The position numbers and the translations under genes are program-made. This document shows, piece after piece, positions 26,301 through 47,364 of a stretch of 64,000 nt of DNA; position 1 is the first letter of the stretch; each line of letters opens with the position of its first letter. Origin of the DNA: an uncultured Planctomycetota bacterium (lineage in GTDB: Bacteria; Planctomycetota; Planctomycetia; Gemmatales; Gemmataceae); contig CAWKHF010000005.1 in NCBI GenBank assembly GCA_963849325.1, positions 160,001-224,000 on the forward strand. The letters are read 5' to 3'. Under the pieces are notes generated by a model, which was given only the letters and a program-made list of their open reading frames with translations, did not search any database and was not told the origin of the DNA.

Positions 26301-26487
26301 CCAGAAGGAGCGGGCCGCAGCCCCGACCGCGTGGCTGCGCGATGGCGGTGCTCGCATTCGCCGACTTCTCGGCGCGGACGACGACGCGCATTCGCTGACC
26401 GCAATTGCCGCACGGCCACACAACTCCACTCGGAATGTTCTCCGAACTGAGCTCTGTTCGACACTCCGGGCAGGTGTACGTGAACAT
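23397..26487 (-). CDS. Multidomain protease: Zn-ribbon, TM, trypsin-like, HEAT repeats, caspase (C14), FGE-sulfatase/CLec (internally deleted)
   Basis: CPEC..CGNC; TM helix; LTAQHV / DLALI / GDSGG; HEAT repeats; ALLIGV..SHG..MDACR; NSIGMRLMPIPKGTFLMGSP. The in-frame stop is at 23461, but a C-terminal GFRVV segment in another frame ends at 23397. Confidence 0.88.
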
Positions 26488-26543
26488 GGTCGTGTCTCCG
26501 TTCGGCCTTCGCTGCGTCGAGCGTGTTGGGCCTCGTGATGCAG

Positions 26544-26654
26544 GCTTTTCGGAGTTGACGGATGGTGCGAGTATTATCGGCTCAAGAACCAAGGGATGGA
26601 TCGGGCCGGTAAAGGACGCTTTTCGGAGTTGACGGATGGTGCGAGTATTATCGG
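26544..26654. repeat. Exact 37-bp direct repeat x2 separated by a 37-bp spacer
   Basis: GCTTTTCGGAGTTGACGGATGGTGCGAGTATTATCGG at 26544-26580 and 26618-26654. Confidence 0.9.
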
Positions 26655-26675
26655 GGCAGCCTGTCGATTCCGCAA
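26647..26675 (-). promoter_or_regulatory. Putative sigma70 promoter TTGCGG-N17-GATAAT for the multidomain protease
   Basis: Minus-strand hexamers with 17-nt spacing; the -10 box lies inside the 37-bp repeat. Confidence 0.45.
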
Positions 26676-26706
26676 GGGTCATTTCTTCGATTTTCATTTT
26701 CGTCGA

Positions 26707-26753
26707 GACCCGCAACGTCAGCGAGGGAGCGTCCTTCGCTGACGCGGCGGGCC
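26707..26753. repeat. Imperfect REP-like palindrome (CCCGCAACGTCAGCGAGG / CCTTCGCTGACGCGGCGGG)
   Basis: Inverted arms with a CGTCAGCGA core. Confidence 0.6.
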
Positions 26754-26768
26754 CCGACGAAAATGCGC

Positions 26769-29030
26769 CTATTTCGGCTCCGTCCTCCACTTCAAAACCC
26801 GCATGCCGTGCTGCTCGGCGAACGACGGAATGAGCACGCTGCGAGCACCGGATCGATACATCGCGTGCTCCAGCAGCTGGCCCAGCGGCGACCGCAGACC
26901 CTGACTGCGATCCACGGTTCGCGCTCGCCGCAGTCCGTCTTGGGCCAGGGCCGTGAAGTTCATCGGCGGGTTCGTCGCCGGCGTGGCGATCACCACCAGG
27001 TGCTCCGGGCCGAACGGCGGCTCGTCTCCGACCTCTCCGTGCGGCGGCGGCGTGTCCAGCGTACGGCCGGGTGGCACGGTTTTGCCCGCCTCGTTGGACT
27101 TGGGGTAGAACGCCTCGATCTGAAAGTCCGCGCCGATGGTCAGCAGCGTCACGTCCAGCGGCGATCGGCTCTTGTTGTGGATGCGGAACGAGATCCGATC
27201 GCCCGGCCGGAACACCCACCCTTCGGCCGGCTGCCGCAGCACCTCGCCGCGATCAGACGGGTTCTTGTGCCCCAATACCTCCACGTCCAAACCGACAAGA
27301 GAGCTGCCGCGGTACCGCTGTCCCTCGAAGCGGCCCGCCAGCGCGAGCAGGTTACGCGCCCGATAGACTTTCTCCAGATTGTGACGCAGGGCGTCGATCC
27401 ATCCGACGTTGTCCAGGTCCGGCAGGGCGAACGGCTCCCGGTTGCCCGAGGCCTCCACCAGCTGGAGCTTCCCCTTTTCCGGACGTACCAACCACTGTGC
27501 CTGCCGTGGATCTTCCACGTACTCCACCAGTCCCTCCTTCGCTTCGGCGAGAGACTGGACGGCCTTCCGTAACCGCTGCCGCAGCGCCGCCTGTCCGTCC
27601 GGGACCTGGACGGCCACCTTGAAGCGCCGTAGGCTGTAATCGACGAGCACCGGCCGGCACGTCGAGAGCAGCGGCAGCTTCTCCACCCGCAGCGATTCCT
27701 CATCGGCGCACGGCTCGACGGTCGCGTCGAACGGTCGGATGTCCTGCACGCGGACGTGGCCCAGCAGCTTTGGCTTCTCTCGCCCGCCGGCAGGCGACTC
27801 CACCGCCAGAATGCTCCCGGAGGTGAGCCCGTGCAGCGCTCCCGCATTGACCTTGTAGCCGTCCTCGTCTCGGCTTAACAGCAAGGGCGACCGCAGTGGT
27901 TGCTCCGTACCCAGGACGACGCGATCCTGTCCTCTGCCCTCGACCAGCGGCGTCGGCGAGCCTTGCGGCCGACCGGCGTACTGGATCTGGAGGCGTTGGA
28001 CCAGTTCTCGGTAGGTCAGCGGCGAGGGCGACTCCGCCGACTTGGTGAGGATGTCCACCAGGTTATAGGTGAGCAGCCCATAACACTTGGCGTCCCGCGA
28101 ATCGGCCGGCTGGGGACATTCCGGCGTCGTTTCCTGCGGCCGGCAGGCGTACACCGCCACCAGGTAGTCGGAAGGCTCCTGCGGTACGAACGGAGCGGAC
28201 TTGGCCGACGATCCGCCGCGTGTCTTCCCCTGCCGCCGAGCCGCCCGCTGCCGGGCCTTTTCCAGCTCCTCTCGGGGCATCAGGGTATCCGGCGGCAGTT
28301 CGCGGACGACCTCGACGCCGCGGGTCATGGTTCCGGAGTGGCAGCAATCGAAGATGATCCAGACGTAGGCCTTCTTCGCCGTGATGGCCCGCAGCCAGTC
28401 GCCGATCTCATTATCGATGATGGCGTTGTGTACCCTCTTGGGGCTTCCCTCGCTCTCTTTCACGTCGGCCGGAAGGAAGATCTCGTCAATGCCGTCCGGC
28501 TCGGGGTAGCGTGGATCGGGAGGATCGCTCTCGGGCTGACGATCGCCGTGGCCGGACAGCAAGATGAGGATCTGATCGCCTTCGCCGGCCTGGTCCGCCA
28601 GGCGGCGGAACTCGCGCGCGATGTTCGCCCGCGTCGGCCGACGATCCCGGCGGCCTTCGTCCTCCGTCAAGGCGACGATGCCCTCGGCCGGAAATCGAAA
28701 GCGTTTCGTCAACAACGTCCGCATCAGCCGCACGTCGTTGGCCGGGCCGGTGAGGTGGACTCTCTCGGGCAAGTGGTCGTATTTCGTTATGCCCACTAGG
28801 AGCGCGAGCCTGTGGACGTCATGGGCAGCAGGAGCGGGATCCGCTTCCGAGGTCCGAACCTGCGCGGCAGTCGCCTGTACGAGTTTGAGCATCTCCGATG
28901 GCGCATTCCCTTGGATCGGCCGGCCGGCATCCGCTCCCCGCCGGCGGCTTCCTCCGCAACCGAGGGAAAGCCCAGTGACGATGAGGACGACGCTCCCTGC
29001 CGCAAGGAGGGGTAAATTCAGGCGACTCAT
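26769..29030 (-). CDS. Caspase (C14/metacaspase-like) lipoprotein with C-terminal DUF4384-like domain
   Basis: Lipobox-like LSLGC; LALLVGITKY, GPANDV, LSGHG, IFDCCHSG catalytic dyad; C-terminal FRPGDRISFRIHN...PPFGPEHLVVIAT. Confidence 0.88.
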   Translation of the reverse strand: MSRLNLPLLAAGSVVLIVTGLSLGCGGSRRRGADAGRPIQGNAPSEMLKLVQATAAQVRTSEADPAPAAHDVHRLALLVGITKYDHLPERVHLTGPANDVRLMRTLLTKRFRFPAEGIVALTEDEGRRDRRPTRANIAREFRRLADQAGEGDQILILLSGHGDRQPESDPPDPRYPEPDGIDEIFLPADVKESEGSPKRVHNAIIDNEIGDWLRAITAKKAYVWIIFDCCHSGTMTRGVEVVRELPPDTLMPREELEKARQRAARRQGKTRGGSSAKSAPFVPQEPSDYLVAVYACRPQETTPECPQPADSRDAKCYGLLTYNLVDILTKSAESPSPLTYRELVQRLQIQYAGRPQGSPTPLVEGRGQDRVVLGTEQPLRSPLLLSRDEDGYKVNAGALHGLTSGSILAVESPAGGREKPKLLGHVRVQDIRPFDATVEPCADEESLRVEKLPLLSTCRPVLVDYSLRRFKVAVQVPDGQAALRQRLRKAVQSLAEAKEGLVEYVEDPRQAQWLVRPEKGKLQLVEASGNREPFALPDLDNVGWIDALRHNLEKVYRARNLLALAGRFEGQRYRGSSLVGLDVEVLGHKNPSDRGEVLRQPAEGWVFRPGDRISFRIHNKSRSPLDVTLLTIGADFQIEAFYPKSNEAGKTVPPGRTLDTPPPHGEVGDEPPFGPEHLVVIATPATNPPMNFTALAQDGLRRARTVDRSQGLRSPLGQLLEHAMYRSGARSVLIPSFAEQHGMRVLKWRTEPK

Positions 29031-29100
29031 GGATTCCACCTCTTACCGAAGGCAAATGCCGGCGACACGTCGGCGAAGCGTCGCCAACCGAAGGCAAGTA

Positions 29101-32100
29101 TCAGCGCCAGTCGCCGGAGAGGACGAAGGCGGCCCAGACGTAGGGCGGCGGCGATCCCTCCCGCGTCAGGCGCTTCAGCCCGCCACGGGGCTTCCAGTTG
29201 TCCAGCATCCATAATTGCGCCTGCCGCATCGCCTCCGCCTTGGCCATCGGCTTGTCCGACCACACGAGACGATAGAACTCCCGCATGAGCTGATGGGTCT
29301 CCTCATCGGGCACGCTCCACAGGCTGGCCGCCACGCTGCGCGCTCCTGCCAGCTGGAAGGCACGCTGCAAGCCCAGCACGCCCTCGCCGCCGGCCACCTG
29401 TCCCCGGCCAGTCTCGCAGGCGCTGAGCACCACCAGCTCCACCTTGCCCAGGTCCAGCTCGCCGGCCTCCAGCGCCGTCAGGATCGTCTCTTCGGGCCGT
29501 CGATCCGTGCGGTTGACACCGGCGAACACCACGCCCGACAGCAAGCCGGGATGCCGCCCCGTGGCCTCGACGCGCAGCCGCAGGCCGTCACGCAGCAGCG
29601 CGGCCCTCTGAGCTACATCCAGGGCGGACTTCTCGGATTCCGCCGCGAAGAAGCCGTGCGTGGCCAGATGCACGAAGCGATGCGACGGGACCGCGGCCAG
29701 AATGGCTTGCTTGGTGGCCCTGTCCTTGCGCAGCACCTTGGGCGCGGGGGCATCGGGGAAGGTGTCCTCAAACTGGGCGCGCAGGTCGTTGACCTCGCTT
29801 TCCGAGCCGGGCAACCTCTTGAACAGAGGCAGCGGTGGCAGCTTGCCGGGGCGGATTTCGCTGTCGGCGGCTTTTCGCTCGCCGAAGTCGATGCCGCCCG
29901 CCAGCAGCAGAGACGGCTGTTCTCCGGGCGGCCGCGGCTGGCGGCGCAGCAACTGGGGGAGCAGTTGAGGAACGGGGATGGTGGCAAAGGTGTACTCGTG
30001 GACCAGGAACTTACCTGGCTCGGCGCCGGGCAGGGCGGCCAGCGGCAGGCCGTGCAGCGGGCCGTCCGGCGACACCAGCACGACTTTCACGCCCTTGAGG
30101 TGTTTCGCCAGCGGTTCCCACAGGTGCTGGCGCAACTCCGCCGCGGGATCGCCCGTGCCTTCGAGGGGCATCTTGCCGGCACCGTAGCTGGCGCGCCAGC
30201 GGTCGATCCGCTGGGCCATGAGCCGCGACACCCCCAGCGGCACGATGGTGACAGCCTTCTGCCCCGGCCGCACTACGAAGGCGAGCAGTCGTCGTTCGCT
30301 GGACGGTTCGCCATCCCTCGTGGCCGGGGCCGTCCAGTGGAGATAATCAACGAAGTCCAGCAGGGCCACATCGCCGGCCTTGCCGAGGGCGGCGCGGATG
30401 TCATCGGCTTGCAAGTGCGTCTGTTCCTGTAAGGCGCTGTAAACGGCGCTGCGGTCGCTCAACTGCCGCTCGATTTGGGCGCGTTCCTCCGAGAGGCTCC
30501 GGATTCGGGCGGCCGCGGCCTGCGGCTGGTTGCCTGACGCTCCTGGCTGGTCGGATACGGACAGTCCGGTCAGTTGCCGGTTGATGTCGCGCAGTCGGGC
30601 GATCAGGCGAGCGGTGTCGGGATCCTTGGTATCGCGGAGTAGCCGGGCCAAGCGTTGCTGGGTGGTGACGGAGCCTTTGACGTGGACGACGCGCGTGTAG
30701 AGTTGGTCGGGTTCGGCGTCCCTAGTTAGTGATGCCGGGAGCAGAAGATCGAGGCAGCCGGAGGTGAGTGCAGCCGTCGTGAACTGTTCCTGTTCGGCCT
30801 GGGCCACTGCGAGGCGAAGTTGCTCGGCGTGGTAGAGATCCGTGGCCTCAGCCAGAGCCAGCGTAGCTTGCTGGAGATCTCTTCCCGAAATCAAAGTCAC
30901 AATTCCCAGATTGTAGAGGCTTAGTGCGATGTCGGGATGGTCGGGAGGCAGGGTCTTGCGACGGATGGCCAGTGCTTCCTCAAGGCTCTTCTTGGCCGCC
31001 GCGTACTCCCGCAGCACATCCTGTAGGCATCCTAGGTTGTTGAGGCTTAGTGCGATGTCGGGGTGGTCGGGAGGGAGCGCCTTGCGGTAGATGGCCAGCG
31101 CTTCCTCATAGCTCTTCTTGGCCGCCGCGTACTCCCGCAGCTCCTGCTGCACATTCCCGAGGTTATTGAGACTCTTGGCGATGTCGGGGTGGTCGGGAGG
31201 GAGCGCCTTGCGGTAGATGGCCAGCGCCTCCCCATGACTCTTCCGGGCCGCCGCGTACTCCCGCAGATCCCGCTGCACAACCCCCAGGTTGTTGAGGCTT
31301 TCGGCGATGTCGGGATGGTCGGGAGGCAGGGCCTTGCGGTAGATGGCCAACGCCTCTTCGTGGCTCTTCCGGGCCGCCGCGTACTCCCGCAACTCTTGTT
31401 GCACGAATCCCAGGTTGTTGAGGCTTTCGGCGATGTCGGGATGGTCGGGAGGGAGCGTCTTACGGTAGATGACCAGTGCCTCCCCATAGCTCTTTCGGGC
31501 CGCCACGTATTCCCGCAGCTCCTGCTGCACAAGCCCTAGATTGTTGAGGCATATGGCAGTATTGAGATGGTCGGGGGGCAGGGCCTTGCGGCAGATGGCC
31601 AGCGCTTCCTGATAGCTCTTCCTGGCCGCCATGTACTCCCGCTGTTCCTTCTGCACAAGTCCTAGGTTGTGGAGACTGTTGGCGATATTGGGATGGTCCG
31701 GGGGCAGCGCCTTGCGGCGGATGGCCAGTGCTTCCTCGTAGCTCTTTCGGGCCGCCGCGTTCTCTCGTAGATACCACTGCACAAGCCCCAGGTGGTTGAG
31801 ACATATGGCGGTGTGGGGGTGGTCGGGCGGCAGTGCCTTACGGTAGATAGCCAGCGCCTCCTCATAACTCTTCCTGGCAGCCGCGTACTCCCGCAGATCC
31901 CGCTGCCCATTCCCGAGGTTGTGAAGGCTGTCGGCGATGCGGGGGTGGTCCGGGGGCAAAACCTTGCGCCGCATAACCACCGCCTGCTCGTTGGACTCCT
32001 TCGCCCCGCGCGCGTCTTTTCGCCCCAAACGGGGACGTCCTAACAAGTGCCACACACGAGCCGTCTCGGCGGAATCTTGCGGCAGCACCTCCCGGAACGT

Positions 32101-32668
32101 CTCCAGTACCTCCGCCGCCTTGCGCTCCGCCTCCTCATACTTGCCCTGTTGGTTCAGACGGATCGCCTCCTGTTCCGTCCGCAACGCCCTGAGTATCTTG
32201 GCCCGCTGCCCCGCTTCCAGACCGGCCATCTTCTCCGCGAAGGCCAGCGCTCGCCGGGCATCGCCGGTACGCCAGTGCTTCTCGCCGTCCAGCTTTTGCC
32301 GCAGCGTCAGTGCCTCCTTGCGGTATTTCATGGTCGCGGAGAAGTCGCCCGATAGCTCTTGCAGCTCCGCAGCGCGTGCGAGGCTCTCGGCTACCTCGGC
32401 GTGTTCCGCACCCCATACTTCGCGGGTCAATTGCAAGGCCCGAATCGCGTGGTCGAGCGCCTCAGCATACCTGCCTTGGCCAAGCAACTGCTCGGACTCA
32501 CGACCAAGCCTCTCACGCTCTGTCAGCTTGGCCTTTTGCTCGGCCGTCAGCTGAGGAGGAGGACTTTTCCTCGCGGCCTCATCCGCGGCAGGAGGCGCTC
32601 GAGGCACCCAGTATCAGCAGGCAACTGAGCAAAGCCGGAACGCCGAGGCGGTATGCGGTCTTCATCAT
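29101..32668 (-). CDS. Exported TPR (42-aa repeat) + CHAT protease protein
   Basis: Signal peptide MMKTAYRLGVPALLSCLLILGA (frameshift near 32590); TPR array; VSPDGPL, VHLATHGFF, LVVLSACETG, WAAFVLSGDWR. Confidence 0.93.
30905..31972 (-). repeat. Tandem 126-bp (42-aa) TPR repeats, 8 full + 1 partial
   Basis: Repeating RKALPPDHPxIAxSLNNLGxVQxxLREYAAARKSxEEALAI. Confidence 0.92.
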
Positions 32669-33238: not shown

Positions 33239-34557
33239 TCACAGTTCGGCGAGCGGCGCCGTGGCGTCGCCGAAGCGCTGGGCCGGCACTCCCATCCGCC
33301 GCAGCAACGACAGATACAGACTGCACAATTTGCGGTTGTCCTCGACGCGCTCCGTGTAATCGAGGACTCGGCCGGTAGCAAGTGTCCCGCCCAGGCCTCC
33401 CACCAGCAGCACCGGCAGCTTGCTCGAATCGTGCCGACTGCCCGACCACATGTTCGACAGGAACATCAGGCACGAATTGTCGAGTACGGTGGTCTCCCCT
33501 TCGCGCATCTCGGCCAGGCGTCCGGCGAGATACGCCAACTGGCTCACGTAGTAGCGCGTCACCCGTTCGTAGGCGTCGGAGTTGTCTTCGTGCGACGTTG
33601 GGTGGTGGGCCGTCCGCACGTCGAGGAACGGGTAGAAGAGGCCGGAGAGGTCTCGGCACAGCAGCAGCGTGGCGACGCGCGTCTTGTCGGTCTGGAAGGC
33701 CAGGGCAACGATGTCGCACATCAGCCGCATGTGCTCGCGGATGTCTTCGGGCAGGCCGTTGTCGGGCCGGCGCATGGCGAGGACGGGCCGACCGCGATCG
33801 CGCGCCCGCTCCTCGGCTCGATGGGTCGCGGCGCGGCTGCGCTTCACGCGCTTCTCCACTTCGCGCACGCTGGTTAGATATTCGTCGAGCTTGGCCCGAT
33901 CCGCGTGACTGACCTGGCGGCGCAGCGCCGCGGCCTGTTCCTGGACGCGGTCGAGAATGCCGATCGTCCGCCGGCTGCCCTGGTTGTCGAAGAGGCTGTC
34001 GAAGGCCAGCGACGGATAGACCTCCATCGGCACCGGCGAGTTGGCGTTCTGCCAGGAGATGTGCGAGCTGTAGGCCATCGAGAAATTCGTTTCGTGGTAG
34101 CCGGTGATCGGCTGCTCGCAGCCCAGCACGAGGCTCGGTTGCGCCGTTTCTTCTCCCAGGTGGCGGGCCAGCACCTGATCGACGCTGACGCCGCCGCGCA
34201 GCACGGCTCCCTTCTGCAGGGCGGCCCCCGACAGAATGTTGCCGGTCTGGCCAGGGTGGATGCCGACGCCCATCGCCGCCTTGTTGAACAAGCCGGAGAT
34301 GACATTCAACCGTGGCCGCAGGGCAGACAACGGTTCGAGGCTCTTGCTCAATTGCATGTCGGGGCCGGAACCTTTGGCCCACCAATTTTTGGGGCTGATG
34401 CCGTTGCCCATGAACAGGGCCGCGAACCGCCTGGGCGCGCGCCGGCCGTCGCTTCGCTGCCCCAGACCGGAATCGATTCCAGCCAGGGCAGGGCCATCGT
34501 CACGCCCACGCCCTTGAGCAAGGTACGCCGGCTGATTTTGTTCGACTGTTAGTTCAT
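33239..34557 (-). CDS. DUF1552 family protein (Tat-like N-terminus; start region damaged)
   Basis: ISRRTLLKGVGVTMALPWLES, FMGNG, SVDQVLA, HISW, LDEYLTSVREVEKR, LAFQTDKTRVAT, TVLDNS. TAA two codons after the apparent ATG and a frameshift near 34440. Confidence 0.88.
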
Positions 34558-34602
34558 TATCTCAATCCTCAAACAGGTGTCTGCAAACACCCATTCTTCC
34601 AT
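34549..34602 (-). pseudogene. Truncated PIN/VapC toxin remnant (MEEWVFADTC...)
   Basis: 17 codons directly after the antitoxin-like gene; VFADT matches the VapC first-strand 'VxxDT' motif. Confidence 0.5.
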
Positions 34603-34615
34603 CGGGACTCACCCG

Positions 34616-34834
34616 TTATTGCGGGAAATCAGGCTCCGCTAATTCGAGTCTCTCCAGTTCTTGCCAGTTGACTTCAAACTCGACTTTACCGGAGACAGCC
34701 TTCAACTCACGCAGCCGGCCAAGCCGTAAAAACTCTCGTGCGGCCTTGGAGATGGCTTCAGCATCATTATCGAGCTTTGTAAGCTGCTTGAGGGCAGCGA
34801 TTTCTTGAGAAGTCAACTCGATGGTGATACTCAT
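34616..34834 (-). CDS. VapB-like (RHH) type II antitoxin
   Basis: 72 aa MSITIELTSQEIAALKQLT...AEAISKAAREFLRLGRLRELKAVSGKVEF; typical VapB/DUF2191 layout. Confidence 0.65.
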   Translation of the reverse strand: MSITIELTSQEIAALKQLTKLDNDAEAISKAAREFLRLGRLRELKAVSGKVEFEVNWQELERLELAEPDFPQ

Positions 34835-34874
34835 GGCCCGATCTCCGCAACCCAGTTTCGCTCCTTGAGCAGCC

Positions 34875-37800
34875 TTATCGCAAGGCAGTATTGATGACGG
34901 CGGCTCGGATGCGTAGATTCTCTTGGGAAAGGCCTTCTGCCTGGTCATCAAAGAACCGCTGAGCCTCCTCAAGCGTCCTCTTCGGTGTCTGGTTCCTCCG
35001 GTAGTCGTCTGCATCCCACTGTGGGCAGACAAACCACCCGATGAGATACAGCCCGTGACAGCACGGAGACTCGGTGAGGTAGCGATCGCGCAGTTGCCCT
35101 CTCATATCCTTCTCTACCCCCTGATTCCAGCAGCCTTTCACCTCGATAATGACGGTGATCCGGTCGTACTCCTCGGGGCGGCGCCCCGGCATTAAAGCGT
35201 CGATCTTGATGTCTGTCCGCTCTCCCTGCACGTCTCCCTCCCCCCGTCGGATCTCCACCTCTCGGTTCGCGACGATTCCCCGCTGCTGGATGTCCCGTCG
35301 AAGGTAGCCGCGTGATGTAGTCCGACAATTCATTCTCGTCCTTCGGTCGGTACACGTCTTTCTTTAGCTTGTTCCAGAGATCGGGGGCAGCGGGATTTTC
35401 CCCCTGTAGTTCCTGCTCCAGCCGCTGGAGCGATTCGATCACGACAACGAGGAGTTGGTCGCCACTTTCAACGAGCCGAAGGTCTCGATCGCGGACCATC
35501 TTGAGCAGTACGTTCGGCGAAGGTGGCACCCATGTCTGCCGGAGCGTGTGAGTCCGTGTCTCCACGACCGCCCATCGCAACCAGGAGAGTTCCGGAAGGG
35601 CTGTCGCCAAGCGCTCCATTGTCCGACAGGCGGTAGGCGTTCCTCGGGATTGTAGCTGCTGGAGCACGGCATCGCGGAAGTGCGCCACGCCCTCGCGCGG
35701 CCCAACGACGTGCGCCCCTGAATGCTGCGGATCCTCCGACGGCGGGTAGTGCTGAACGAGCCACAAGTAGAGGTCGCCGATCTGCTCCGCGGAGAGATGC
35801 TGTGTCATGAGGGCGGCGTGTTGTTGGTCGTGGCGGTCGGCGACGGCGGTGATTACCTCTCGACCAAAGTCCACATCCGCTTGGATCGCCGACCATACCG
35901 CCTCCCACCCCGCGTCTGCGGCATGGACGAGGAGCATCGTTGCCGCTACTACCGCCCTGCGCCGCGGTGGCCCATCGGCGGGAAAGGGGGGCGATACCAA
36001 GGAGGTTGCGAAGGCTCTCGCTTCGTCGCTGCCATGCTCGTGGAGCGATTCGAGGAGGTTGCCCATACTCTCGGGGGTAAGGGATGGGTCGCGCGCCTTT
36101 TCCACAAGCGCGGTGGCGAGCCGTGTATCCCAGCATAATGCTACTTTCCGGTGGACCGTGAGCCGTTCGTACTGCCGGTTCTCGCCATCGATCATAGTCA
36201 GCAACACTCGGATGACCTCCTCCGGTGCCTGCATGTACGCGCGCCGCACGAGATCCAGGTGCGGCTCCTCGCCAGAGCCGCCGAGGATGGTTGGGTAGCC
36301 AACAATAACCGGGGTCCACGCTCGCCATCGGTCGGCGTCCAGTAGATCGATCGTGCCCGGCTGCTCGCGTTCCAGGAGACGCAACGCTCGATAACCTGCC
36401 ATGTCCGGGCGATGAAAAGTGTTCGTGCCGAGCCAATCAGCGGCAGAAGGCTGAGCCCGTAGAAGGTACTGTCGTGCGGCATCAAGGATGCGTTGTCGGG
36501 TTGGGCTATCCGCCGCGTGCCACCCTGGGAGAGCCGTGAGATCGGACTCCCGTTCGTCGCCGTAGTGTGTACTCGTCGGTTCGAGCGTCAACTCACAGGT
36601 TGAGCACCCACCACGCATCGAGATTCCCGGCCTCCATGCGGTTGAGATGAATCGCAATCCGTTCTTGCGGTGGGGGCTGGAGCGGCCTGCGCTGCACCCT
36701 TAGCCTTTCCTGCCATTCCTGTTCCTTGCGGTATGTCGCCCGCATCGCATCCGCCTGGGGCGAATCGATTTCGACGGGCGCGAACAGCGGGCCGAATGCT
36801 GTTTTCAAGGCGGGGTAGCTGCGGATAGCTTCCAGGAGCGCATCGACGTGTCCAGGGTGTCCTATCCTGAAAGAGACCTCGAATAATCGCAATCCAGAAG
36901 TCTTGTTCGCCGCCGAGTTGCCGTTCTCACATTGCTCGATGAGCCAGGGCAGATCACCAGGTACCAACAGCGGGGTTTGGGTGAAGGCGAGCGTTAAAGG
37001 ATATTTCCCCCCTCTATCCAGCGGGGCATGATCGCCTCTGCAAGAGGCGGTAACGCTGCGCATTGAGAATCGCTCGCTCACCAGTTCGTTCCAGTCCAGG
37101 AACCGGGCGGTGTTCGGCTAGGCGGCAACCAACGGCCTCCGCAAACAGTTCGAGGATTTCGGGATTATCCAACTGGTTCCATACAGCGTTAAGCACATGC
37201 GTTATCACCTCCCGGAATGGATACTCTGGATCATCCCGCACTGGCTGCACCACAATCCAACGCAGAGCGACGGGCAGTTCCGTAGGAGGAAGGGATTCAA
37301 GGAGTGGCCCCAATAGAAATGATTTATAGGAGCCGAGAAGTCTAGGGTCCTTCGGCGGCGTGAGAGCGGCGAACACTTCCTCGACGCGTGAGTTGATCGG
37401 GCCACAAGGCACGGAGGGCAAAACCCTTCAATTCATCCTGTGGATCATCGCCAGCCTGACCTGTTACACAAGGGAGGAGACGCCGCAATATGGGTCTACG
37501 CATCCGCAATCCGAACCAAGGCGGCCGCAGCCTGTTCGCGGATGTGTTGGTTCTCGTTAGGGTCGAGGACTATGCCCGTGAGTAACTCCTGAAGCACCTG
37601 GAGGCGGCAAGATTCGGCGATGTCGATGGCGACTCGGCGGACGATGGTGTTCTTCGTGCGATCTCGGATGAAGGGGTCCAGCTGGGTATGGAGCCGGGGA
37701 CGGGCGAGTTTCCGGTACTTCCTGCGGCGATCCCACTGGCTATCGATGAGGGTTCCAGCGTCGAAGAGCCGGAGGAGCGACCCGACAAGCCGCTCGCGTG

Positions 37801-39099
37801 CCTCGGGACTCATTGTGGCCACGTCGCTGCTGAGAAGCACTTGCGGGTCGGATTCCACGATCCGGTCGTAGAGCAGGGGAACGAGACTGGCGAGCCACGC
37901 TGCGGTTTCTTGGAGTTGCGGCACTATCTTGCCCGCCTCATCACCGGGGTGCGCGATCAGGCTGAGCATCTGCGTGGCTTCCATGCGCCGGATGTAAAGA
38001 TACCATGCGGCGAGGAATTCGGCGTAGGTCTGGTGGGCGAACCCCAGCTGCTTCGGCCCGCGTGCCGAGAAAAGCCCCGTGTCGAATACCTCCCGCACGG
38101 CGGCGTCTGTGATGTTCACGGGCTGCCCGTCCATTAGTTCCATCCCGTCGCGGAGATACTGCGAGCGGAGGTCTCCCTCGGGGGCATCATTTCGAGCACC
38201 CGTCCAGATAGTCGGCCGGCCGCAAAAAATGGATAGGGCCGCAATCCGTGCGGCGATGTGCAAACGCTGACGCGAATGTGAGGTCTCCTGAACAGTTGTG
38301 CCGCCTGCCGGCTTTCACTGATCTCCTCACAGAGGCACTCGCATCCCTGCCGGTACAGCTCCACCTGCGACAGCGGGAAACTTATCAGCACGTTGGTATG
38401 ACTCAAGGAGGAAACGGAGTGTCACGGGCTTGCTTGCGAGTGCGGCGGCCTCTCAGACGGTCCACCTCGGCGAGGAACGCCACAGGATCGACTCCCGCAT
38501 GCCGCTGCCGCGTCGGCGACATCCCTCCGACGCAATGGCACCAACTCGTACACCCCGACCCCATCCTCACCCCAAAGCCTCGTCAGCTGCGTCTCCAGGA
38601 GCATCGGCCACACCGCCGTCCGGCAAGCGATGCGCAGTCGCAGGCGGTCGAGGGGACAGCGCCAGAGCTCCTCTCCAAGGAGGGCTGCGAGCGTATCGAT
38701 GCGGATGAGGCACTCGTCTAGACTATCGAGAAACAGGTGGAGGATGCCGCTACCGGCTCTCCAGGCAGTGAAAGAGGGATCCTCGAAAATGGAGCGAACG
38801 AGCAGGAGATCCGACTGGTAGGCGTTCAGGTTCCGCCAGAGGAGGACTTCCCCCGCGCGGCGGATCGCCGCCTCGGTCTCGCGGCGGTGGCACTCCAGCG
38901 CCGTCGTCTTGCCGATGCCTGGCTCGCCGAGCAGGATGAGGCAGAGCTTTGTGGCGATCTGCTCGAAGGCGACGACGTGAGGATTCGAATGGGGACCGTA
39001 CTCCGACTCGGGATTGAAGAGGAAGCCATCGCCGGTGAGGATGATCTCCTCGCCTCGCGGGCACCAGAATCGCTTCCAGTTGAAGGATTGGTCTGCCAT
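34875..39099 (-). CDS. Large STAND/NACHT-like NTPase with helical repeats and C-terminal PD-(D/E)xK-like nuclease motif (multiple frameshifts)
   Basis: Walker A LLGEPGIGKTT, Walker B LFLDSLDE, IACR, winged-helix FAHQTYAEFLAA, HEAT-like body, C-terminal ENELSDY..NREVEI..RTDIKI..IIEVKGCWN. Stitched from 7 ORFs. Confidence 0.8.
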
Positions 39100-39264
39100 G
39101 CTTCGCCTATTCAACCACAACAGTGGGGCGAACACCAGCAATCCGCGGCTACACCGCCGCGGCCCGCAAGAGGCGCCAGAGAGGGATGCCCGCGAGAGCG
39201 ATAGTCCCACTTCTCAACAGGCCGCTGATGTCCGCAGACGACGAAGGGGATACGTGCTTCCATT

Positions 39265-42200
39265 TTACTGTCCCTGCGGATCGTCGCGCCCTCTCTTGTT
39301 CAGAAACTGCGGACTCGTCACGATCGCTTCGACCAGGCTGCCGAACGCATACCCGTCGGCCGCCAGCCGGGTCCGCATCGCGTCGAGCGCTTTGCTGTCC
39401 GACAGCAGCAGGCTCGCGCCCAGCGCGTAGGAAAACAGCTTTCGGCACAGGTTATCGACAAAATCGTCCTGCCGTTTGTCGCGCAGATACGCGCGCAGGC
39501 CCGTCAAGCCCCGTGCGGTCCTTGCCGTCGGGGAAGGTCGCGTCGGTCTGGACCGGGCGGCCGCCCAGGTCCTTGGTGCGATGCTCGCCGACCGGGCCGA
39601 ATCCCTCGAAGACCAGGCCAACCGAATCGAAGCGGCGATGGCAGGCCGGCGCAGCTCTTGTTGTCGCGGTGCCGGGCGAGCACTTGCGGCAGCGTCAACT
39701 CGCCCAGTTTCGCCTCGTCCTTCGGCAACTCGGGAACGGTCGGCGGCGGCGGCGGAATCTGCTCGCCCAGCAGCCGGCGGACGACCCAGTAGCCGCGCTT
39801 GACGGGACTGGTGCGCAGGCCCGGCGCGTTCTTCGTGAGAAAGACCGCCATCGGCAGCAGGCCGCCGCGGCCGTAACGCCGCGCGTCCGCGACGTGGACC
39901 CATTCGTCCGGTCGCCTTGCGGCTCGGGCATGCCGTAGTGCCGGGCCAGCGGCCGATTCACGAACGTATCGTTGCCGTACAGCAGATCGAGGACGGAGCG
40001 ATTGCGCTGGGCCATGTCGAGGAAGTAGCGGATCGGCTCCTCAAACATCGCCTGCCGCAGCTCGTTGGTGAAGCTCGGGAAGCGTTGGCGATCGACGCTG
40101 TTGTGCTCCTCGAAGCGGCGGAAATCGAGCCAGTTGCCGGCAAACTCGGTCGCCAGGCCGCGCAGCGCGCGGGTCGCGCAGCATGCGCCGCGCCTGGGCC
40201 GTCAGCACGTCCGGCCGATGCAGGTCGCCCGCCGCGGCGTGGGCCAGCAGCTCGGCGTCGGGCATGCTCGACCAGAGGAAATAGCTCAACCGGCTGGCCA
40301 GCTCGTAGTCCGACAGCGGCCGCACGGCCGACCTCGCTTCCGCCAGGTCGAAGCGGTAGCAGAAATGGGGCGACAGCAGCACGGTGACGAGCGTGTCGCG
40401 CAGCGCCTCCTCGTGTCCCAGATCGTCGCTCGCGGCGGAGCGTGCGATAAAACGCCAGCAGATCGTCTCCGTTCGGCGGCCGACAGAGGCCGGCGGTAGG
40501 CCCGCTCGGCGAACTGCACCAGCGGCGTCAAGGTGGCTCGGCTCGGCGGCCAGCCGGGCGCGCTCGACCCGGCGAATTTCCGCCGACATGTCCGGCGAAA
40601 TAGGTCTTCGATCGCCTCCAGCGCCTCGTCGCCGGCCCCCTGCTCGCGCGCCTTGGCCAGGTACGCCTTCGCCAGCCGATCCATCTTCGCCTCGGACGTG
40701 GCATCCTTGTCCTCGGAGCGGGCGAAGTCGAACTCGGCCTCGCGCATGAAGCGCGGCGGCTCGGCCCGCTCGAAGAAGATGAAATCCTTGTACTGCCGCA
40801 TCGGCACCCGGGTGACGAAATTCAGCTCGTGCCACAGCGCTATCCAGCTCGCGCCGCTGCCGTTCGTCGAGAATCAACTCGCACAGCGGTTCGTCGTCGC
40901 GGAAATAGCCCTGCATGAGGTGGAAGCCGGCCGTGAGCGGCCGACCCTGGCCGGCCGCGTTGGGATCGAAATACGGGCCGCGGTCGGCGACGACAAAAGC
41001 GTCGGGAAACACCGCACAGAACCGCTCCAGCGCCCGGCGCAGCCGTCGTTCCGCCTCGGCGTCGGTTGCGTTCGCCGCGAACAACTTCGCCAGCCCGGCG
41101 TCCGCGTCCTGGAGCTGGTTCGGCCAGCTTGCGGAGGTCGGAGAAAACCTCTCCCGAATAACTGCGATGCCGGCTCGCCAGTTGGCGATTTCGCCACAGG
41201 ACGAACGGCTGGCTGCCGTCGGAAATCCCCGCGACGTGCAGCTTGCCGACCTTGGGCTTGAGCTGCCGGCGCAGACGCACGACCAGGTCGCGCATCCGCT
41301 CGCAGCCGGGACGAGCCGCGTCGGACGATGCGCTCGGGCGGCGGCAGTTCGCGCCACATCGTCCGGACGGCGGCCAGCGGTCCCGCTTCCGCTCTCGGCA
41401 TCGGTCAGGGCCGACCAGACCAGCGACAGGTACTTCGCGCTCAGCCCCGCCTCGGCCGCGAAACGGTCCAGCTCCGCGTCGGACCGGCCGAGCCGGTCGC
41501 GGTGGCGATACTTCCAGGCGGCCAGGAAGTAGTCGGCGTAATCGACCTTATGGCGCTCGTAAAAATCGACGATGCGCTGCACGCAATACTTGTCGCGGTC
41601 GGTGTCGGTCACGGCCGGATGCGGTGCGAAGACGAAGCCGTCCGGCTTCAGGACGACGTGGTCGGCGATCCGCCGGGCCGCCGCCAGGTACTTCTTGAGC
41701 AGGGCCGGAGACATGGCCAGGGATTCGCCCGAGTTGTCGAAGCCGGCTTCGTTGGCGGGATCGACCGGAAACTCTCGCGTCGGCCGAATGTCCACGCCGG
41801 TCAGGTCGCGGATGGTGTAGTCGAACTCGGCGTTGCTGAGACGGCGGGCCAGGACGGGCCCCGGATCGCCGGCGTTTCGCCGCGCTTCGCGGTCGCGCAG
41901 CTCACCAATCCAGGCGATCACCGCGGCCCGCTCGTCGGCCGTCGGCTGGCGCGGCGCGTCCTCCGGCGGCATCTCGCCCGCCTGGAGTCGTTCGAGTACC
42001 TGCTCCCAACGACGCGCGTTGTTCGCGACCGCCGTCACCGTCGTGTCGCGGCTGAGGTCGAGCTGGGCTTTCGGCTTCTTCGGGCCGTGACACGATACAC
42101 AATAGCGTTGGAGGAATGGCCGCACGCGGGTGGCGAATCGCGGTTCGAGCGGGTCGGCCGGCGACGCCGGATCGGCCCCCCGCGCCGGACGAAGGGTGTA

Positions 42201-42272
42201 CCGCGCTCCTCCGTCGGTCAGGCCCAGAGCGAGAACGGCGAAGACAATCGGTGTTCCGAATTTCCTGGACAT
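39265..42272 (-). CDS. Planctomycete cytochrome c + DUF1587/1595/1592/1588/1585 protein (frameshifted)
   Basis: CVSCH heme motif, RRLSNAEFDYTIRDLTG, GFDN, ELASRLSYFLWSSMPDAEL, RTSPVKRGYWV, KLFSYALG, IVTSPQF. Confidence 0.9.
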
Positions 42273-42352
42273 CGAACTCCCCTGCGGATGGCGACCCTGC
42301 GATTGTACTGCATCGGCCGGCCCTCTTCGTATGGTTTGTCCACAAATCTCTT

Positions 42353-42408
42353 CGTTTCGCCGCGACGCGCAGCGGAGCGCGCGCTCCGCTGCGCGTCGCG
42401 GCGAAACG
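42353..42408. repeat. Family-A REP-like palindrome
   Basis: cgtttcgccgcgacgcgcagcggagcgcgcgctccgctgcgcgtcgcggcgaaacg. Confidence 0.85.
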
Positions 42409-42517
42409 CAATTCGGGAGAGTTTCGACGTGGACGATTGACTTTCGCGGCGGATCGGAGAAACTGAAAGACATTACCTCGCTCGCCAATGCACCCACACC
42501 CCAAGGGAGGAGATGTC

Positions 42518-43909
42518 GTGACGGATTCCCCGAAGCGCGGCTTGACCCGCCGCGAAGTGATGAAGGCGTCCGGTCAGGTCGCCGTGGCGACGGCCCTGGC
42601 CGGACTGGCCACCCCGCAAATCTACGCCGGCAGCAGCGACACCATTCAGATCGCCCTCGTCGGCTGCGGTGGCCGCGGCGGCGGCGCCGCCGAAGACGCC
42701 CTGCACAGCAAGAACGGCCCCACCAAGCTCGTCGCCCTCGCCGACGTCTTCCCCAACAAACTCAAAGACAAGCACGATCAATTCACGAAGAATTTCGCCA
42801 AGCAGTCCGACCTGCCCCAAGATCGTCAGTTTCTCGGCTTCGACGCCTACAAGCACGCGATGGACTGCCTCAAGCCCGGCGACGTGGTCATCCTGACGAC
42901 GCCGCCGGCCTTCCGCTGGGTCCACTTCACCTACGCCATCGCCAAGGGTCTGAACGTCTTCATGGAGAAGCCGATCACCGTGGACGGCCCGTCCACGCGA
43001 CGGATGCTCAAGCTCGGCGAGGAGGCCAAGAGCAAGAACCTCAAGGTCGGCGTCGGCCTGATGTGCCGTCACTGCCCCGCGCGCGGCGAGATGTTCAAGA
43101 AGATCCAGGACGGCATGATCGGCGACATCACCCTGCTGCGCGCCTATCGGCAGCACAATCCGGTCGGCTTCTTCGCGTCGCCGCCCAAGCCGGCGGGCAT
43201 CAGCGAGCTGCTCTACCAGGTGCAGCGCTTCCACTCGTTCTTGTGGGCCAGCGGCGGCTGCTACAGCGACTTCTACATCCACAACATCGATGAATGCTGC
43301 TGGATGAAGGATGCCTGGCCGGTCGAGGCCCGCGCCTCCGGCGGCCGGCACTATCGCGGCAACAACATCGATCAGAACTTCGACAGTTATTCCGTCGAGT
43401 ACACCTTCGGCGACGGCACCAAGCTGCTGCTCGAAGGCCGCTGCATGAACGGCTGCGATCAGCAATTCGCCAGCCTCGCTCACGGCACCAAAGGCTCGGC
43501 GATTATCTCGTCCAACAGCCATTGGCCGTCGCGCTGCCGGCTGCTCAAGAGCCAGCACAACAGCGGCGAGAAGAAATATCAGAAGGACGTTATCTGGCAG
43601 TGCGCGCAAGGAACCCAGCAGCGATAACCCCTACCGCGTGGAGTGGGACGATCTGCTCGCCGCCATCCGCCAGGACAAGCCGTACAACGAGGTCGAGCGC
43701 GGTGCCAAGCCAGCCTGGTCACGGCCATGGGCCGCATGGCCGCTCACACCGGCCAGGTCGTCACCTACGACGAGATGCTCAACTGCGAGCACGAGTTCGC
43801 GCCGGAGGTCGATAAGCTGGCGATGGATGCGCAGGCGCCGCTGCGGGCCGGGCCCGACGGCAAGTACCCCGTGCCCGAGCCGGGACGGAAGAAGAAGCGC
43901 GAATTCTAA
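42518..43909 (+). CDS. Tat-exported Gfo/Idh/MocA family oxidoreductase (frameshifted near C-terminus)
   Basis: TRREVMK Tat motif; ALVGCGGRGGGA; FMEKP; IHNID. Confidence 0.9.
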
Positions 43910-45387: not shown

Positions 45388-45481
45388 TCTCGGCGAACGG
45401 CCGGCGTCAGCCGGCTGGTGTAGCATCTCGATCACCTTCGTTATGTTATACCAGCCGGCTGACGCCGGCCGTTCGCCGAGA
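45388..45481. repeat. Family-D REP-like palindrome (GGCGAACGGCCGGCGTCAGCCGGCTGGT)
   Basis: Long inverted arms; second copy at 55131-55197. Confidence 0.85.
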
Positions 45482-45564
45482 TTTTCTTCTTTGATCCCCA
45501 GCCGCGCCGGAGGTACGATGCGCGGAGTGGTCGTCAACTCGGTTTCCTTGCAAGGGGGGATGCC

Positions 45565-46841
45565 ATGTTCACGTTCTGGGGTTCCAGGCAGACGTTCTGC
45601 GACGGCCTGACGCGGCGGGGATTTCTCCGCGTCGGCGCCTTCGGGGCCGGACTGACGCTGGCCGAGATGCTGCGCCTCCGCGCCGGAGCGGGGACGTCCG
45701 CGCCGACCAAGTCCGCCATCATGATCTACCTGCCGGGCGGTCCGTCGCACATGGACATGTACGACCTCAAGCCGGAGGCGCCGGCGGAGTTCCGCGGCGA
45801 GTTCAAGCCGATCGCCACCAACGTGCCCGGCGTGCAGATCTGCGAGCACTTTCCGCTGCAGGCGAAGATGTGGGACAAGCTGGCCTGCGTCCGCTCGATC
45901 GTCTCGGTGGACGAGCACTCCGACACGCTGGTGATGACCGGCTACAGCGACCGCGAGAACCGCACGGCCGGCCATCCGTCGTTCGGCTCGGTGGTGTCGA
46001 AGACTGCGTGGCGGAACGCGACGTCGCTACCCCGCCGTTCGTCAGCCTGCGCGGCATGACGCGCGGCACCGAGCCGGGCTACCTCGGCATCGCGCATCGG
46101 CCGTTCACGCCCAACGGCCCCGGCCTGAACGACCTGCGCCTGGCCCGCGGCGTCAGCGCGGAACGACTGGGACGAGCGCAAGGACCTGCTGCAAGGCTTC
46201 GACGGCATTCGCCGCGACATCGACGCCTCCGGCACGCATGACCGGGCTGGACGCCTTCGCCGCCCGCGCCTTCGACATGGTTCCTCCGGCGCCGTCCGCA
46301 ACGCCCTCGATCTGAAGCAAGGAAGAGCCGAAGATCGCGCGACCGCTACAAGGGCGTCGAGCAGTTCCTGACGGCGCGCCGGCTGGTCGAGGCGGGCGTC
46401 GGCTGCGTCACGCTGTCGATCGGCGGCTGGGACACGCACGGCAACAACTTCAAGACGCTGGCCCGCCAACTGCCGCTGGTCGACCGCGGCATCGCCAACC
46501 TGATCCAGGATCTGCACGACCGCGGCATGGACAACGACGTGGTGACGGTGATGTGGGGCGAGTTCGGCCGCACGCCGCGCATCAACAAGGGGGCCGGCCG
46601 CGACCACTGGCCGCAGGTCATGTCGGCCCTGGTCGCCGGCGGCGGTCTGCGCATGGGCCAGGCCGTCGGCTCCAGCAGCGCGCGCGGCGAATATCCCAAG
46701 GACCGCCGCGTCACGGTGCCGCAGGTGCTCAGCACCCTCTACCGCGCCATCGGCATCGACCCGGGGCGGACCTTCCCCAACGGCAGCGGCCGGCCCATGT
46801 ACATCCTCGACGACCGCAGCCCGGTGACGGAATTGCTGTAA
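45565..46841 (+). CDS. DUF1501 family protein (frameshifted)
   Basis: TRRGFLRVG, YLPGGPSHMDMYDLKP, WDTH, WGEFGRTPRIN, GRDHWP. Confidence 0.92.
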
Positions 46842-47125: not shown

Positions 47126-47364
47126 GGCGAGAACCCTCTCACAAGATAGGTCACCAGATACGTGGTTGAGTCCGGGTCCAGAGAGGAGATCGGCGTCGAT
47201 CCCGGATCGAGGTCTTAGATTACCAAAGATTCAGCAAATAGCAAGACCATTTTCTCGGATGCGCATTCTCCACATCTTGTTCGAGGGAAACGCATCGGAA
47301 TGCTGTCGTCGTTTCCGGTTGTGGTATAATCGCTGCCGCCCGACTCTTCCGCGAGGGACCGGCG

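Follow-up and report, generated by a model that had tools for sequence, protein, structure and literature searches.

Described antiphage NACHT proteins and the family at this locus

EruA and HyoA, the nearest named families to the gene analysed here, presumably correspond, judging by their names, to Erebus and Hypnos from the 2024 work of van den Berg et al., and their NCBIfam entries (NF058535 and NF058534, respectively) are each titled 'NACHT domain-containing antiphage protein' with the protein name. A literature search on 'EruA' and 'HyoA' returned nothing relevant, and the literature search found no experimentally tested member of the family of about 1,400 aa to which our gene belongs. 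According to the available text of 'Diverse bacterial pattern recognition receptors sense the core phage proteome' (Nature 2026, PMC13581612), Erebus, Hypnos and bNACHT64 constitute Avs10, which reportedly recognises the HK97-fold major capsid protein, and removal of the effector abolished cell death in the Avs families. The bNACHT proteins, as described in the available text of Kibby et al. (10.1101/2022.07.19.500537), combine a NACHT module with a repeat-type sensor and an enzymatic effector. The effector of bNACHT25 has a restriction-endonuclease fold, as predicted for our gene, but in most described bNACHTs, bNACHT25 included, it is N-terminal in that text, whereas here it occupies the last 165 residues of the protein. 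The Avs1-4 (AVAST) proteins share the logic of a STAND ATPase, a helical sensor and a nuclease, but have N-terminal effectors and other sensors, and belong to another STAND clade.

Profile searches relate the present family most directly to EruA and HyoA. All nine full-length intact members scanned match EruA (202-310 bits, E 1.8e-59 to 6.3e-92) and HyoA (161-198 bits), and none of the nine reaches the curated cut-offs of 1000 bits for EruA or 1200 bits for HyoA. Since these whole-protein scores fall far below the equivalog cut-offs, we place the proteins in a separate, unnamed sister family. One member (L017) gave a single alignment joining residues 44-1354 to positions 17-1273 of the 1,318 in the EruA profile; when the C-terminal 221 aa are searched separately, they align to EruA positions 1125-1289 (4.7e-16) and HyoA positions 1287-1392 (2.2e-7). 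The DNA of the window, that is, the whole 64-kb stretch analysed here, itself matches EruA positions 221-476, 944-1193 and 1186-1272. Judged by these profiles, the family is homologous end to end with EruA and HyoA and is not an equivalog of either. It also resembles them in length (about 1,400 aa, compared to profiles of 1,318 and 1,430 positions) and in the order of its NACHT, helical and C-terminal nuclease-like regions. The first-pass annotation had presented this order as a reversed layout; its implied novelty is not supported, as C-terminal effectors on bacterial NACHT proteins are already in print and occur in EruA and HyoA as well.

As in Avs10, in so far as the available text describes it, a single gene codes for a STAND receptor that unites helical sensor and effector; the likeness is drawn through the EruA and HyoA profiles, and capsid sensing is a property reported for Avs10 itself. 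None of the nine intact members matched the PADLOC-DB v2.0.0 models, and among the seven fragments of the gene in the window only the N-terminal one gave weak P-loop matches to that database (PDC-S73, E 0.0014; PtuA, E 0.086). The available text of a 2020 eLife survey of conflict systems (PMC7159879) contained nothing specific to this architecture. Sequence comparison supports the gene as a divergent member of an already described antiphage group. Our main reading, with a probability of nearly 0.8, is that the gene, horizontally acquired and interrupted by frameshifts that are most likely errors, specifies an Avs10-type, NLR-like antiphage receptor made of a single protein. With about the same confidence, we predict that the protein opens with a short beta element, continues with a NACHT ATPase switch and a long helical sensor, and ends in a PD-(D/E)xK nuclease.

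A coding region read in three frames

The first-pass annotation had reported a gene of about 4.2 kb at this locus, and a coding region of that size is indeed present on the minus strand, though broken by frameshifts (Table 1). It runs from an ATG at 39099 to a last codon ending at 34878, with the stop directly after, and intact homologues align with it colinearly over their full 1,403 residues. Instead of a single ORF, its roughly 1,403 codons are read in three frames: a tblastn search with the 1,403-aa homologue P0001 yielded seven colinear pieces that together cover residues 1-1403. A frameshift-aware alignment to the same protein contains 12 frame changes (11 extra bases and one missing base), with 1,053 of 1,390 aligned codons identical and no in-frame stop along the read-through. 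In two cases, neighbouring events are separated by only 2-4 codons, so that the honest count is 9-12.

Table 1. Coordinates of the gene, its domains and motifs, and the surrounding features within the window.
Feature	Position	Strand	Remarks
Inserted cassette, 4.7 kb	34570..39275		GC 0.609; gene, small ORF and about 175 bp upstream
NACHT-sensor-nuclease gene	34875..39099	-	Colinear with P0001 residues 1-1403; 76% identical
NACHT NTPase module (residues about 50-370)	37985..38952	-	Motif conservation, fold, NLR matches
Walker A GEPGIGKTT	38902-38934	-	P-loop near N-terminus
Walker B LHLFLDSLDEC	38710-38742	-	D125, D128, E129 invariant (50 sequences)
Sensor-1 RIACRT	38605-38634	-	C159, R160 invariant (50 sequences)
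Winged-helix AHQTYAEFLAA	38000-38050	-	H354 invariant (50 sequences)
Helical, presumed sensor region (residues about 371-1180)	35548..37984	-	Model covers residues up to 831
Predicted PD-(D/E)xK-type nuclease domain (residues about 1238-1403)	34878..35376	-	Model, conservation, EruA/HyoA C-terminal match
Nuclease helix E	35320-35346	-	E69 invariant
REVEI	35250-35270	-	Nuclease-domain motif
ERTDIKID	35199-35222	-	Nuclease-domain motif
IIEVKGCW	35127-35159	-	Nuclease-domain motif
Small ORF, 72 codons	34619..34837	-	Inside insert, downstream of gene; no family match
DUF1552 (HXXSHH) family resident gene, intact	33242..34561	-	Pfam 8.8e-86
Planctomycete PSCyt1/PSD3/PSD4/PSCyt3/PSD2 family resident gene, frameshifted	39268..42761	-	Domains over four overlapping ORFs

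So many frame changes within 4.2 kb could mark a true pseudogene, disabled by genuine frameshift mutations after its horizontal acquisition. Family copies are truncated elsewhere (L012 has an ORF of 468 aa, L036 a remnant of 95 aa), and the density of frameshifts is patchy: a 3.5-kb CHAT-TPR ORF and the 1.3-kb DUF1552 ORF nearby are unbroken, so that a local excess in the NACHT gene is conceivable. However, the essential rpoB gene of the same genome shows the same density, with nine frameshift events in 3.8 kb, and its read-through matches a same-genus orthologue at 1,163 of 1,249 codons. The rpoC gene is likewise split into pieces, the flanking conserved PSD-family gene, compared with two orthologues, contains single extra bases that are unpaired, and interruptions like those of the NACHT gene affect two DUF1501 genes. 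Moreover, the read-through of the NACHT gene lacks nonsense codons and, measured against 104 full-length members, retains 40/40 invariant positions, 165/165 positions at least 95% conserved and 247/249 positions at least 90% conserved, which would not be expected after a decay that left about ten indels. Because rpoB is broken at equal density and all 165 of these conserved positions are kept, errors of sequencing or assembly most likely account for the breaks, the gene probably being intact in the organism, and decay is an unlikely explanation. No public sequencing runs containing the 4.2-kb stretch were listed. In places, rpoB included, the assembly appears to hold about 2-3 erroneous single-base indels per kb, and its apparent pseudogenes should therefore be given no biological reading before polishing. 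The GC3 phase track proved too noisy for use as a frameshift detector.

Predicted NACHT, helical and nuclease-like regions

The assignment as a STAND/NACHT-like NTPase is borne out by the motifs and by the predicted fold. Both Walker patterns tested, GxxxxGK[ST] and hhhhDxxDE, are present in the window, and G58-E-P-G, G63 and K64 of Walker A are at least 90% conserved, hence nearly invariant, across 50 aligned sequences. The arginine of sensor-1 after strand 4 and the histidine of the winged helix are known motifs of NLR proteins; here they are invariant as well. Only about 50 residues precede the P-loop, which is thus close to the N-terminus as first noted. A Foldseek search of the PDB with the predicted model of residues 1-831 (pLDDT 89.7) returned 75 matches at E<=0.001, headed by NLRP3, NOD2, NLRP9 and NLRC4/NAIP with E-values of 2.3e-7 to 1e-5 and a probability of 1.00; the joint alignment of several domains keeps their TM-scores low (0.2-0.35). 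Avs4 (PDB 8dgf) ranks 43rd among these matches (E 3.1e-5), outscored by the animal NACHT NLRs. For the Pfam NACHT family (PF05729), the best scores of 20.7 bits (P0027) and 16.7 bits (the L011 protein) stay below the gathering score of 26.7 bits, and the window fragment has only weak Pfam matches, to AAA_22, AAA_16 and nSTAND3.

The long helical body described in the first-pass annotation is reproduced by the model of the homologue, where residues from about 355 to 831, at which the model ends, are predicted to consist of helices only. Matches to HEAT_2 and alphaRep in this region are sub-threshold, and the region is also aligned to the EruA profile.

The terminal E...E...D...EVK motif, at 35127-35346, proved to be invariant: E69, E94, D110, E133, K135 and Q149 do not vary in the 50-sequence alignment, and the E, the D, the ExK and the following Q are also invariant across the 104 members. 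In the model of the C-terminal domain (pLDDT 86.2, pTM 0.83), helices at 69-87 and 142-157 and strands at 89-93, 110-118, 125-136 and 162-169 are arranged in the alpha-beta-beta-beta-alpha-beta core expected of a restriction-endonuclease-like fold, with E69, D110, E133 and K135 on its elements. Compared with 48,161 chains by VIA-align, the model is closest to BamHI (Z 7.9, 149 aligned residues, rmsd 4.4), a Z below 8 being compatible with a merely common arrangement; PaqCI (7.5) and BstYI (7.2) come next, then EcoT38I, McrBC and Can2 (7.0), and at least 13 of the top 20 entries are, by title, restriction or CRISPR-ancillary nucleases. A homodimer of the domain was predicted with a score of 0.62, compared to 0.00 for the best control, with at least 92% of contacts agreeing between runs and a partner pLDDT of at least 79; this mark is attained by 20 of 30 proteins whose solved structures are pairs and by 1 of 23 whose solved structures are single chains. 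The modelling supports a PD-(D/E)xK-type, restriction-endonuclease-like effector at the C-terminus, as the first-pass annotation had proposed.

It is very improbable, in our estimate, that this domain does not cut DNA, being inactive or another restriction-fold module (an RNA nuclease, a DNA binder or a dimerisation element) with the toxic output residing elsewhere. The middling structure matches would be compatible with such a role, Foldseek having given no match to the PDB at E<=0.001 (the best being MspJI, E 0.03), as would the lack of a match to the Pfam nuclease families searched. Nevertheless, the full catalytic set is invariant in both sequence sets, the short segment ahead of the P-loop leaves no second effector-like domain, and the Avs families in the available text of PMC13581612 depend on their effector for cell death.

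A search for short proteins with the C-terminal domain recovered mostly contig-end fragments of the same family rather than stand-alone nucleases. Some of the short C-terminal fragments carry the precomputed label PF28130.

Acquisition, proposed function and distribution

The gene arrived horizontally, as supported by its position in a cassette of 4.7 kb that separates two resident genes. The segments on either side (33239-34571 and 39266-40500) have homologues at same-genus loci, and these lie 22 bp and 58 bp apart in two same-genus genomes (L022 and L024), where the resident genes abut. The GC content of the insert is 0.609 compared to 0.651 for the window. Codon usage, which the first-pass annotation had found less GC-skewed than that of the neighbours, indeed differs: the GC3 of the gene is 0.71, against 0.72-0.875 in nine neighbouring ORFs, eight of which lie at 0.79-0.875; the lowest figure, 0.72, belongs to a frameshifted PSD ORF and is unreliable there. 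A search of 10 same-genus genomes yielded no homologue and the own genome no paralogue, and the DUF1552 gene has orthologues of 79-89% identity in 8 of the 10. The insert boundaries show only short, low-identity direct or inverted matches, and we claim no terminal repeats. The small ORF within the insert is single-copy in the genome; it was rejected as a conserved partner gene, having no family and being absent beside eight homologue loci. For a Planctomycete-type genome, the locus would provide a clear case of an NLR-like defence cassette consisting of one gene, set between two resident genes.

If the protein works like Avs10, the helical sensor would bind a conserved phage protein, in the case of Avs10 the HK97-fold major capsid protein. 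Binding would release the NACHT module for ATP binding and oligomerisation, which may gather the C-terminal nuclease domains as dimers and lead to DNA cutting; cutting would then stop the infection, probably at the expense of the cell. In this scheme, the role in defence, the trigger and the choice of DNA as substrate are inferred; what the analysis shows directly are the identities of the domains, the conserved catalytic residues, the insertion and the pattern of errors.

The candidacy as an NLR-like defence protein is supported by homology to the NCBIfam antiphage families and by context elsewhere, namely BREX genes, plasmids and viral contigs. The family comprises at least 285 clusters spread through environmental phyla, with intact copies in Bacteroidota, Cyanobacteria, Chloroflexota and Thermodesulfobacteriota, among them those of Marinifilum (L011) and Pseudanabaena (L014). 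Environmental bacteria hold a large conserved sister family of the Erebus/Hypnos (Avs10) receptors. We regard only tentatively, and as rather doubtful, the further idea that this sister clade has a trigger of its own, other than the HK97 capsid protein; if so, the phage proteins sensed by NACHT-nuclease receptors would be extended into Planctomycetota, Cyanobacteria and Chloroflexota.

An intact protein working as proposed might also serve a role other than phage defence, such as plasmid or mobile-element competition, addiction, or another conflict or maintenance function. Homologues on 21 plasmid records, 11 of them conjugative, would suit such roles, as would ParAB, TrbL, PIN and a CDI toxin-immunity pair among the neighbours in other genomes. 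We nonetheless consider a non-phage role improbable, as curation assigns an antiphage function to the nearest named families, the available text of PMC13581612 has the Avs10 group responding to a phage capsid protein, and some copies adjoin BREX genes or lie in a variable slot of viral contigs beside HEPN and reverse-transcriptase genes.

No known defence system was found adjoining the gene within the window. No match to the gene was found among 50,697 GenBank phage records. Of seven homologue loci with scanned neighbourhoods, two differ in context: from a Chloroflexi (L015) and an uncultured bacterium (L018), they have flanks with mostly housekeeping or signalling genes, and the latter locus additionally holds a protein kinase-AAA_16 gene.

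Reconstruction of the NACHT-nuclease gene

On the minus strand, 34875-39099 has no single long ORF; the open sequence is broken into seven overlapping pieces that use three frames. Among the 8,000 candidates sharing the most words with the longest open piece, at least 285 related protein clusters, mostly of ~1,400 aa, were scored as relatives; the closest, P0001 (an intact homologue of 1,403 aa), has 79% identity across the query. With tblastn, residues 1-1403 of P0001 match the window in colinear pieces running from 39099 down to 34878. Frameshift-aware alignment to P0001 required 12 frame changes, 11 extra bases and one missing base located in a G run; the true count may be nearer 9, since two pairs of changes lie only 2-4 codons apart. 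The resulting read-through is free of in-frame stops and identical to P0001 at 1,053 of 1,390 aligned codons. Because the whole protein is matched colinearly once frame changes are allowed, the coordinates of the first-pass annotation prove exact, and it was right to advise polishing and reassembling the ORF.

The breaks could be assembly errors or signs of decay. In the source genome, rpoB and rpoC are split into at least four and at least three frame pieces. Compared to an intact same-genus orthologue, rpoB shows nine frame changes in 3.8 kb (six extra bases, three missing), with 1,163 of 1,249 codons identical, i.e., 2.4 changes per kb versus 2.8 for the NACHT-nuclease gene. Directly upstream of the insert, the Pfam domains of the PSD-family gene are spread across four overlapping ORFs. 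Both same-genus orthologues compared place unpaired single extra bases at identical positions in it, and two DUF1501 genes are likewise split over frames. Relative to 104 full-length family members, the read-through retains all 40 invariant positions, 165 of 165 conserved at ≥95%, 247 of 249 at ≥90% and 387 of 410 at ≥80%, exceeding the mean family member at every level of 95% and below. Unbroken ORFs nearby (3.5-kb CHAT-TPR, 1.3-kb DUF1552) indicate a patchy error density, which counts against an error reading. However, since pseudogenization is impossible for an essential gene such as rpoB and decay would have cost the NACHT-nuclease gene some conserved residues, the breaks are, judging from sequence, most likely assembly errors, and the organism probably has an intact gene. 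Single-base indels are frequent even in essential genes, which probably explains why the 8.16-Mb, 14-contig genome reaches only 84.7% completeness by marker genes. Among the frame changes, single extra bases away from homopolymer runs dominate (11 of 12 events in the NACHT-nuclease gene, 6 of 9 in rpoB), an unusual error profile whose density is patchy along the contig (window 34878-39099, 39268-40500).

Domain architecture and relation to antiphage NACHT families

Only ~50 residues precede the P-loop, and the protein therefore lacks an N-terminal effector. Pfam matches to P-loop and NACHT families were all sub-threshold. Across P0001 and 49 homologues, aligned over P0001 residues 1-831, the Walker A, Walker B (DSLDE), CRT sensor-1 and AHQTYAEFLAA winged-helix motifs are invariant or nearly so, and the window carries all four. 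AlphaFold2 modelled this stretch with confidence (pLDDT 89.7, pTM 0.78), and the model's top PDB matches are the animal NACHT receptors NLRP3, NOD2, NLRP9 and NLRC4/NAIP (E 2.3e-7 to 1e-5, probability 1.00); Avs4 ranks 43rd among 75 matches at E≤0.001. Residues ~355-831 are all helix in this model, with weak similarities to HEAT_2 and alphaRep. Both the P-loop close to the N-terminus and, within the modelled residues, the helical body had been recognized by the first-pass annotation.

The last 221 residues were also modelled confidently (pLDDT 86.2, pTM 0.83), as a helix followed by three strands, a second helix and a fourth strand. Invariant E69, E94, D110, E133-x-K135 and Q149 (numbered within these residues) sit on core elements, and all but Q149 form the E...E...D...EVK motif noted earlier. 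Foldseek of this model against the PDB returned no match at E≤0.001, the best being MspJI (E 0.03). Exhaustive alignment to 48,161 chains was led by BamHI (Z 7.9), PaqCI (7.5) and BstYI (7.2), followed among the top ranks by EcoT38I, McrBC, Can2, CdiA-CT toxin, LlaBIII, BglII, SwaI, HamA and NgoMIV; as Z<8 may reflect a common arrangement only, the nuclease assignment rests on fold and motif together. The model and the invariant residues thus argue for the restriction-endonuclease-like domain first proposed. The domain is predicted to pair as a symmetric homodimer via residues 44-59 and helix 67-83, with a score of 0.62 (best control, 0.00). Of 30 proteins solved as pairs, 20 came up to this mark, as did 1 of 23 solved as single chains; similarity to solved restriction-enzyme dimers could, however, yield such a prediction. 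Contact agreement between runs was at least 92%, and partner pLDDT at least 79.

None of the nine intact members scanned matched a PADLOC-DB model, and among the window's seven fragments the N-terminal one alone gave matches, two weak P-loop ones. All nine match the NCBIfam equivalogs 'NACHT domain-containing antiphage protein EruA' (202-310 bits) and HyoA (161-198 bits), far below the respective cut-offs of 1000 and 1200. The likeness to EruA runs end to end (e.g., protein residues 44-1354 against profile positions 17-1273 of 1,318), and the nuclease domain alone matches the C-terminal ends of both profiles. The window's own DNA matches the EruA profile in three parts. A literature search on the two names found nothing relevant; from the names, we take them to stand for Erebus and Hypnos. 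According to one study, Avs10 (Erebus/Hypnos/bNACHT64) sensed phage major capsid proteins, and all 13 families lost cell death when effector domains were mutated or deleted (PMC13581612). Since C-terminal effectors on bacterial NACHT proteins are in print, the 'reversed layout' is already known: the suggested architecture of a C-terminal nuclease without N-terminal effector stands, but its novelty does not.

The NACHT motifs and fold, together with the end-to-end matches to antiphage EruA and HyoA, support the first-pass reading of a candidate NLR-like STAND/NACHT defence protein, and place it as a divergent member among NACHT-nuclease receptors like Erebus/Hypnos (Avs10). By analogy, this protein may sense capsids, cleave DNA and act in defence. 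For specialists, the finding is an ordinary one.

Insertion and genomic context

The gene has a GC3 of 0.71 versus 0.72-0.875 in nine neighbour ORFs (0.79-0.875 in eight, the lowest being the frameshifted PSD ORF), in agreement with the less GC-skewed codon usage reported initially. Nucleotide-level matches to both flanks (33239-34571, 39266-40500) occur in five same-genus genomes, where the two are spaced by 22 bp (L022), 58 bp (L024) and ~0.4-0.9 kb (L027, L021 and L023, in G002, G006 and G007). A search of 10 same-genus genomes turned up no homologue of the NACHT gene, and 40 relatives yielded only one partial match (41% identity). No terminal repeats were found at the insert. A lower-GC insert between genes 22-58 bp apart in two relatives, its NACHT gene not seen in the 10 same-genus genomes covered, supports the proposed horizontal acquisition, as a small cassette. 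The PSD-family/DUF1552 junction varies within the genus, and may be a recurrent insertion point; the PSD-family gene is absent within 10 kb in L029-L031 (G009, G004, G008).

Features around the NACHT-nuclease gene and its homologues (window positions unless a contig or locus is named)
Feature	Position	Strand	Remarks
Inserted cassette	~34570-39275		GC 0.609 (window 0.651)
72-codon ORF	34619-34837	minus	inside cassette, just downstream of NACHT gene; lower GC
PSD-family gene	39268-42761
DUF1501 genes	45463-46838, 47330-48739
TPR-CHAT protein	29104-32613	minus	1,170 aa
Caspase-domain/DUF4384 protein	26772-29042	minus
Trypsin-HEAT-caspase-FGE-sulfatase protein	23464-27252	minus	1,263 aa
rpoB	G000 C1:334838-338629		source genome
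rpoC	G000 C1:338780-343005		source genome
L011 neighbours			DNA methylase, AAA_21/DUF4276 pair
L012 neighbour	L012:10240-18669		2,810-aa CHAT-domain protein; Oscillatoriaceae genome
L012 family member	L012:8266-9669		just a 468-aa C-terminal piece open
L014 neighbours			BrxB, BrxC, ParAB
L015 neighbours			mostly housekeeping
L016 neighbours			CDI toxin-immunity pair
L017 neighbours			TrbL, PIN
L018 neighbours			mostly housekeeping and signalling; protein kinase-AAA_16 gene
Variable slot, three related viral contigs	L034:2413-6960, L035:2416-8253, L036:2298-7863		IMG/VR

The 72-codon ORF has no family match and a single genome copy, and was not seen beside homologues elsewhere.

Eight homologue loci in reference genomes span Bacteroidota, Cyanobacteria, Nitrospirota, Chloroflexota and Thermodesulfobacteriota, four with intact ORFs of 1,391-1,439 aa. 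No neighbour is conserved across them, which points to a single-gene system. Homologues occur in 21 plasmid records (11 conjugative, 4 mobilisable, 6 non-mobilisable), in 12 over at least 80% of the homologue length; GenBank phage records gave no match. In the IMG/VR contigs, a portal-like gene and a PLD-SNF2 helicase or methylase flank a slot containing the NACHT-nuclease gene alone, this gene with an LA2681-type HEPN gene, or a reverse transcriptase, HTH gene, NACHT remnant and HEPN gene. This slot looks like a defence-cargo hotspot.

No known defence system adjoins the gene in the window; at distances of 2-11 kb are a CHAT-TPR gene and two genes with caspase domains. These belong to a conflict-system-like cluster on the minus strand (23464-32613), in which the two caspase-domain ORFs overlap by ~480 bp, possibly owing to another frameshift.
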